DNA of 29,333 bases from Escherichia coli (GCF_003334815.1 NZ_QOWO01000044.1), one strand, 5' to 3'; shown: positions 26,791 to 27,313, numbered from the stretch's first letter. Translations and numbers: made by a program. The notes: generated by a model from the letters alone, not told the origin.

Positions 26791-26960
26791 TTTATATCCT
26801 TATTTGCAGTGGTGACCCACACGAAAGATCACATACAAAGAAAAATTTGTTTATTAACAGTTCATTGCGAAACCATCTAGCCAACAAATGCTAAATTGGT
26901 TCGCAATCAGGTACACAAATGAAAGACATTAACCTCTCACCTTCCACCCGGTTGAGCGAT
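26791..26960 (-). promoter_or_regulatory. thrS 5' leader / translational operator region; boundaries approximate
   Basis: Untranslated region immediately upstream of thrS. In E. coli the thrS leader folds into tRNA(Thr)-anticodon-like hairpins bound by ThrRS; I did not fold this sequence. Confidence 0.45.
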
Positions 26961-27313
26961 GTTAACACTAAAAAAAGGGAGATTGTACCTTTCCGTTTCA
27001 CATTGATTCGATTCGCAATTCGTTTGTAGTGAGTACACCAGCAAAACGCTTAAAGAACAACTGATAACATCACGGTGCGTCTGAAAGGTTTACTGCGAGC
27101 GGATTTACAGCAGCATAAACTGAATCCAGCAAAGTTCGTTGCGTGATTTGGCGGTAGTATTTTAAACGCTCATGAGATTAATGACGAAGTGGTCATATCA
27201 CAATGATAAAAGTGACACAATTCTTATAACAATTTTTCGTGCACATTTCGTTCTGGCGATAATAATTAATCATCATCCTCAAAACCTCCAGATATATATA
27301 AGGCGAACAGATT

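Follow-up and report, generated by a model that had tools for sequence, protein, structure and literature searches.

The DNA analyzed here (the window; 29,333 nucleotides, with positions counted from its first letter) is Escherichia coli K-12-type DNA. It equals positions 1775858-1804955 of MG1655 (NC_000913.3) barring seven SNPs, at 179, 1217, 5037, 10778, 17516, 27932, and 28422. The gene thrS (24862-26790, minus strand) is supported by the ORF call and the RefSeq annotation, and its divergent neighbor arpB (27314-29175, plus strand) is annotated by RefSeq as a frameshifted espL1, a type III effector gene of the ShET2/EspL2 family (PF07906). The pseudogene is frameshifted in K-12 and is here cut by IS10 from 29176. 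Its first ORF starts with the ATG at 27314, and espL1 cannot extend upstream because of the in-frame TAA at 27299-27301. Both ends of the window are IS10 sequence (ISVsa5-like, IS4 family). Positions 1-77 are a fragment with the outside end, inserted in ydiF, and positions 29176-29333 are the inside end, which truncates the 3' end of arpB. The DNA therefore derives either from a K-12-like strain with additional copies of IS10 or from a contig broken at IS10 repeats.

Between the two divergent genes lies an intergenic gap of exactly 523 bp (26791-27313), in accordance with the AT-rich non-coding gap of about 520 bp that was read from the sequence alone. The gap has a GC content of ~38% (0.377-0.385), compared with 0.496 for the whole window and for thrS. 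The GC content of arpB is 0.394, so the AT-richness runs on from the gap into arpB. RefSeq annotates no gene between thrS and espL1 in MG1655, another K-12 strain, and seven other strains, and an ORF scan finds no ORF of more than 59 residues within the gap. The sequence-only reading also called the gap unusually long. It is indeed the longest of the 26 annotated intergenic gaps of the window (the runners-up, 332 and 315 bp, are both also divergent), but overall it is ordinary. In the K-12 genome of Blattner et al. 1997, the mean intergenic distance is reportedly ~118 bp and only ~70 spacers are said to exceed 600 bp; by these sizes, 523 bp is long, yet not extreme for a divergent pair.

The part of the gap next to thrS is the thrS leader, as the sequence-only reading had proposed. 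The thrS start in the supplement of Kim et al. 2012 (U00096.2 1800756) corresponds to window position 26952, and so does the major start of the thrS-infC-rpmI-rplT transcripts in SMRT-Cappable-seq (NC_000913.3 1802732). The 5' UTR of thrS therefore comprises 162 nt (26791-26952, minus strand). Its sequence is identical to that of K-12 and nearly invariant within E. coli (pi 0.0046), and its fold (z = -2.9 versus shuffled sequence) matches the published architecture of the operator at which threonyl-tRNA synthetase (ThrRS) controls translation.

The operator domains can be placed one by one on the minus strand. Domain 1 contains the Shine-Dalgarno (SD) sequence UAAGGA (26797-26802), which is given as the thrS SD in the literature (PMC3858243) and is invariant across 40 enterobacterial leaders. 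Domain 2 is a hairpin (26803-26839) that ends at 26803 and thus abuts the SD. It is obtained both in the single-sequence fold and in the consensus folds of the two leader types described below, and presents a 7-nt loop, UUCGUGU (26819-26825), in which CGU (26821-26823) resembles an anticodon. Among type-A leaders, three of the domain 2 pairs are changed in a compensatory manner, e.g., GC/AU in seven sequences and AU/CG in nine. Domain 3 (26840-26863), which forms the upstream half of the split ribosome-binding site, is a single-stranded linker rich in A and U; neither the centroid fold nor the consensus folds pair it. The hairpin of domain 4 (26864-26907) corresponds to inverted repeat I1 and carries the loop AUUUGUUG at 26882-26889 with an anticodon-like UGU. 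In the consensus fold of 20 type-A enterobacterial leaders, several pairs of domain 4 are changed compensatorily on both sides. This consensus recovers both operator hairpins, and 9 of the 27 pairs have two-sided compensatory changes. A further, 5'-proximal hairpin (26908-26950) is predicted in E. coli; it is absent from the 20-species consensus structure and is not conserved beyond close relatives.

The leader thus has a 5' UTR position with a start at ~160 nt, two hairpins with NGU loops, and an SD that adjoins domain 2, together with an A/U-rich linker. In positions and folds it is the known E. coli thrS operator, with no difference over 26791-26952, although the operator element accounts for just 31% of the gap. 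The Rfam scan yields no family for the thrS operator. Autoregulation of thrS through mimicry of the tRNA-Thr anticodon arm is established and was reportedly worked out in the Springer, Ehresmann, and Romby laboratories. In the published biochemistry, the unstructured ribosome-binding site of thrS mRNA is bipartite, being split by a hairpin that ThrRS recognizes, and ThrRS bound to the operator competes with the 30S subunit, so that translation is repressed (PMC3858243). In the window, domains 2 and 4 would accordingly be the mimics of the tRNA-Thr anticodon arm. Free ThrRS would bind beside the SD and block 30S binding, which would be the classic autoregulation of thrS translation.

Two Term-seq 3' ends on the minus strand lie inside the leader, at 26859 (-69 relative to thrS) and 26869 (-79), just past the domain 4 hairpin. 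Neither depends on Rho (score 0.6, not significant), and their intrinsic-terminator score is 4.76. The position of these ends indicates that a 5' leader fragment of ~84-94 nt accumulates, ending just after domain 4, and such a fragment may be stable. The thrS ends at -69/-79 are likewise among the 5' UTR-derived RNA fragments found by 3'-end mapping (Adams et al. 2021, PMC7815308). Compared with those fragments, the thrS one lies within a known leader and outside the distal part of the gap, and any regulatory role of it would be putative.

The mapped start also bears on the IS2 insertion of a K-12 mutant resistant to avibactam, which was placed "145-150 bp upstream of thrS, likely in the promoter" (PMC12323667). 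Its site, NC_000913.3 1,802,720, is window position 26940. This is 12 nt downstream of the mapped start, inside the leader and its 5'-proximal hairpin. Because IS2 lies downstream of the start, it severs thrS from both its promoters, which corrects the promoter reading in that recent resistance study.

The main thrS promoter, P1, occupies 26953-27009 on the minus strand. It is defined by the promoter sequence that Kim et al. 2012 list with the start site and by homology across genera. P1 combines a TG-extended -10 element (TGTTAACAT, 26959-26967) with a weak -35 region and, farther upstream, carries the conserved block CAATGTGAAACGGAAAGG (26988-27005). We compare the region with 80 thrS loci from other Enterobacteriaceae (L003-L082). 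The homology to Salmonella, Citrobacter, Kosakonia, and others stops at ~27009, 220 nt upstream of the thrS ATG. A minor upstream start is listed in the SMRT-Cappable-seq operon tables at NC_000913.3 1802805 on the reverse strand, which is window position 27025. The candidate elements of this minor promoter, within 27025-27060, are hexamers read by eye: TTGTTC (27055-27060), a 17-nt spacer, and TGgTGTACT (27032-27040). They lie within E. coli-specific DNA, and the -35 element is polymorphic among strains at 27059. The promoter zone has a low diversity (pi 0.012). In this arrangement, the main promoter with its TG-extended -10 element fires at 26952, and a weak secondary start lies at 27025.

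The same 80 loci show that the upstream half of the thrS leader (in the ~170-250 nt before each thrS ATG; 26864-27009 in the window) exists in two unrelated versions, while the final ~50 nt, comprising domain 2 and the SD, are common to all. Type A (25 loci) is found in E. coli, E. albertii, Salmonella, some Citrobacter, Enterobacter, Lelliottia, and Kosakonia. Type B (47 loci) is found in E. whittamii and two other Escherichia, Klebsiella, Raoultella, Kluyvera, and other Citrobacter and Enterobacter. It has a different promoter and an invariant GCAGAGUGAAGC hairpin, with G-U at the loop positions expected of an anticodon mimic. The mosaic distribution of the two types within genera suggests recombination or replacement of the regulatory region. 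The spacer between yniD and thrS is 475-517 bp in type-A species without arpB and 290-305 bp in type-B species. In Phytobacter ursingii (L048), a relic of a type-A thrS promoter and leader (2030-2221; 72.5% identity to window 26819-27009) lies 2.8 kb upstream of thrS, from which it is separated by an inserted block with a 463-residue ORF. The active leader beside thrS in this species matches in the shared last ~50 nt only. The DNA ahead of thrS seems to have received insertions repeatedly.

Beyond the thrS promoters lies the distal segment (27062-27313), the AT-rich, E. coli-specific 5' flank of espL1/arpB. The sequence-only reading assigned the distal 350 bp or so of the gap to DNA with no sizeable ORF. 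There is indeed no credible ORF, but the length is overstated. Once the 162-nt leader and the thrS promoter DNA are subtracted, ~250-300 bp (27010 or 27062 to 27313) are left to be explained. Of 5426 complete E. coli genomes, 5415 contain the distal segment, at 94-100% identity and in one copy each, and none of the 5426 has a paralogous copy near espL2 or espL4. Distant blastn matches labeled as plasmids are solely to mislabeled chromosomes, and no real plasmid is matched. Among 79 other enterobacterial thrS loci, neither blastn nor an nhmmer profile search (E<=10) finds a homologue.

Outside E. coli, in the genera and Escherichia species sampled, the small gene yniD is the divergent neighbor of thrS and arpB is absent. 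The gene yniD is the ancestral divergent neighbor of thrS, and espL1 is confined to E. coli. On the far side, the sequence ahead of yniD becomes homologous again only ~57 nt from the ATG of that gene. Together with the limit at ~27009, this defines an E. coli-specific block of ~2.3 kb, from ~27010 to ~114 bp beyond espL1, of which the distal segment forms the left end. The block would have arisen by insertion of an AT-rich cassette of ~2.3 kb, comprising the flank, espL1, and ~110 bp downstream, between the thrS and yniD promoters. One Escherichia lineage (L003) retains 26791-27207 plus short remnants of arpB; it is a further decayed copy and not the pre-insertion state. In accordance with acquired DNA, the segment is low in GC and, this decayed Escherichia copy aside, found in E. 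coli alone. When intact EspL1 is used as the query of a protein search, no relative between 81 and 28% identity is found. The 81% match (L092, a Logan contig of SRR27475715) is systematically changed from G to A when compared with E. coli, as bisulfite-type conversion would do. As a divergent EspL1 lineage it is rejected, since it is a base-converted assembly artefact.

Some features of espL1 vary among isolates. The gene is intact (632 residues) in several ETEC, avian, and urinary isolates. In K-12 and in strain C2 it is frameshifted, and the two alleles furthest from K-12 (~96% identity) retain only ~1 kb of it. The spacer of 522-523 bp between thrS and espL1 is retained in all espL1 alleles compared (L083-L089).

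The distal segment evolves almost neutrally, at a near-synonymous rate. Among eight diverse E. coli alleles, pi is 0.037 in the distal segment, 0.039 in the 5' part of espL1, 0.040 at third codon positions of thrS, and 0.053 at fourfold sites of thrS. The low-diversity zone reaches ~27061, and beyond 27062 the diversity is eight-fold the leader value. Positions 27160 and 27179 carry indels. No invariant run exceeds 35 nt, a length that by our own estimate is about the chance expectation for 27 variable sites in 252 nt. The distal pi is ~70% of the fourfold value of thrS in these eight alleles, which leaves room for weak constraint on short sites. In one natural bovine isolate, IS1A is inserted at 27130-27138 inside the segment, indicating that disruption is tolerated.

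The sequence-only reading raised the possibility of a small RNA or a small protein in this distal DNA. An independent small regulatory RNA, on either strand, would suit the length and AT-richness of the spacer, the binding of RNA polymerase holoenzyme to it in genomic SELEX (PMC3946193), and the sigma-70-like minus-strand sites at 27187-27159 and 27232-27203. However, the sole starts in the gap in two K-12 data sets (Kim et al. 2012 and SMRT-Cappable-seq) are the minus-strand thrS starts at 26952 and 27025. Neither data set has a start in the distal part on either strand, or a plus-strand or arpB start anywhere in the gap. No Term-seq 3' end is listed at NC_000913.3 1802700-1803099 (window 26920-27319), and a scan of 26600-27500 finds no terminator-like site. 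Sigma-70-like sites are not enriched (4 versus 2.3 +/- 1.7 expected, with none on the plus strand), and the predicted -10 element at 27159-27164 carries an indel in six of the eight alleles. The folding energy of the distal part is at the level of shuffled sequence on both strands (z = -0.03 and -0.41), and no credible Rfam match occurs in 26000-28000 at E<=10. The snoU13 match is spurious (19 bits versus a gathering score of 46), and the Ysr209 match is a fragment inside thrS. Inverted repeats I2-I4 are weak (71-90% over 10-21 nt); the only convincing inverted repeat is operator domain 4. The near-neutral substitution rate, the indels, and the lack of a homologue outside E. coli in our searches also argue against an RNA gene, and the spot is unannotated in MG1655 and the other complete E. 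coli genomes among the matches listed. We therefore regard an independent small RNA as very unlikely. For the conditions sampled, the refuting outcome named in the sequence-only reading is in essence what is seen, against the small RNA and the small protein alike: no transcript apart from the thrS leader, and no conservation of the region.

A small protein fares no better in the conservation tests. Three plus-strand ORFs exist. The 36-residue one (26919-27029) starts with an ATG, which a weak AGG precedes by 8 nt, and shows few substitutions among E. coli strains. It runs antisense to the thrS leader and promoter, which account for its low variation. Stop codons break it in five loci of other species (E. 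albertii, an Escherichia sp., Salmonella, and Citrobacter); in E. albertii, Salmonella, and Citrobacter it stops after 3-10 codons even though the DNA is conserved for thrS. The 23-residue GTG ORF (27075-27146) has lost its start codon in six of eight E. coli alleles (27076 T to A). The 59-residue ATG ORF (27172-27351), which runs out of frame over the espL1 start, has lost its ATG in two of eight alleles (27174 G to A), and its frame is broken in one more by the 1-nt insertion at 27179. All three are rejected. In addition, neither K-12 data set has a plus-strand start that could feed any of them. The MG1655 annotation has nothing there, though it includes pheM with its 15 codons, and PGAP-annotated strains have nothing there, though yniD is annotated in them. 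A supplement of intergenic small genes of strain Sakai gave no match, a weak point as its tables are possibly keyed differently. A small protein from one of these ORFs is thus highly improbable.

Could the distal segment instead extend the control region of thrS, through the secondary promoter, a UP-like element, or transcription factor sites? The minor start at 27025 has its -10 and -35 elements in E. coli-specific DNA up to 27060, the low-diversity zone reaches ~27061, and the yniD-thrS spacer of type-A species is also long (475-517 bp) where arpB is absent. Such a role would nevertheless explain at most 27010-27060, since diversity jumps past 27062. Beyond ~27009-27025 nothing is shared with other species of the same leader type, the -35 element of the minor promoter is itself polymorphic, and in a viable natural isolate the IS1 at 27130 separates the remainder from thrS. 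Scanning with the consensus sites of CRP, Fur, IHF, LexA, Fnr, ArcA, and Lrp yielded no more than weak matches over variable positions. A CRP-like palindrome at 27094-27109 has two mismatches and overlaps two polymorphic positions, and Lrp-like matches are weak (6 versus 1.9 expected); both are unconvincing. A run resembling a Fur box (27258-27277) can be aligned only with a 1-nt gap and does not pass the ungapped test. We consider an extended thrS control region improbable.

The sequence-only reading also suggested that this DNA could hold the arpB promoter and silencing sites, which is plausible. We infer from position and co-inheritance that the distal segment most likely carries the promoter and 5' UTR of espL1, which would be silent in laboratory-grown K-12. 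One candidate -10 element is the conserved GATAAT at 27258-27263, with neither a -35 element nor a mapped start, and no sigma-70-like plus-strand site in the gap passes the scan. In genomic SELEX, RNA polymerase holoenzyme binds in this spacer and promoters are predicted in both directions (PMC3946193), which makes some promoter activity in vitro likely. The two predicted promoters themselves, TCGTCA-17-TAAAAT on the minus strand and ATGATG-16-TATAAC on the plus strand, have no mapped start and are polymorphic (indel at 27160 and A/G at 27229), and we do not retain them.

AT-rich flanks of horizontally acquired genes, e.g., upstream of non-LEE type III effector genes, are typical targets of xenogeneic silencing. 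The distal segment resembles them in being low in GC, lineage-restricted, and directly 5' of a gene of an effector family, and in being silent in K-12, fast-drifting, and tolerant of IS elements. It differs from them in being single copy even in O157, and no similar DNA was found upstream of the espL paralogues; espL1, moreover, is fixed in the species, is often a pseudogene, and is not on a mobile island. Silencing of the spacer by H-NS is plausible from its base composition. A stronger form of this idea, which overlaps with a flank carrying the espL1 promoter, holds that the segment acts above all in H-NS nucleation or silencing, so that acquired espL1 stays off. It is consistent with the low GC (0.377, continuous with 0.394 in espL1, versus 0.496 in the window), with the acquired, lineage-restricted DNA, and with the absence of an arpB start in both K-12 data sets. 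However, the genomic-SELEX table marks H-NS on neighboring spacers and has no such mark on the thrS/arpB spacer (PMC3946193), so that H-NS binding here is putative, and the near-neutral substitution rate argues against specific high-affinity sites. That the segment serves mainly as a silencing region is therefore possible but rather unlikely. The transcript data come from K-12 in standard laboratory media, where arpB is a pseudogene, so transcripts specific to other conditions or strains may exist. Relief of silencing, or a type III secretion pathotype with intact espL1, might be required for the flank (~27062-27313) to yield a transcript, the product of a micro-ORF, or an espL1 leader under regulation; the chance of this is small, and the K-12 data sets include neither condition.

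Taken together, the gap is very probably a composite of the thrS leader, the thrS promoter DNA, and the left flank of the E. coli-specific espL1 insertion, without a separate RNA or protein gene. Those parts of it that carry functional signals, the thrS operator and the thrS promoter, are already known, and no annotation is missing from the gap. One of the longer unannotated spacers of K-12 would thus be fully explained by a textbook operator with its promoters, plus the flank, subject to drift, of an effector gene that was acquired and is often a pseudogene, and the two interchangeable upstream halves of the thrS leader in the Enterobacteriaceae may interest researchers of this operator.
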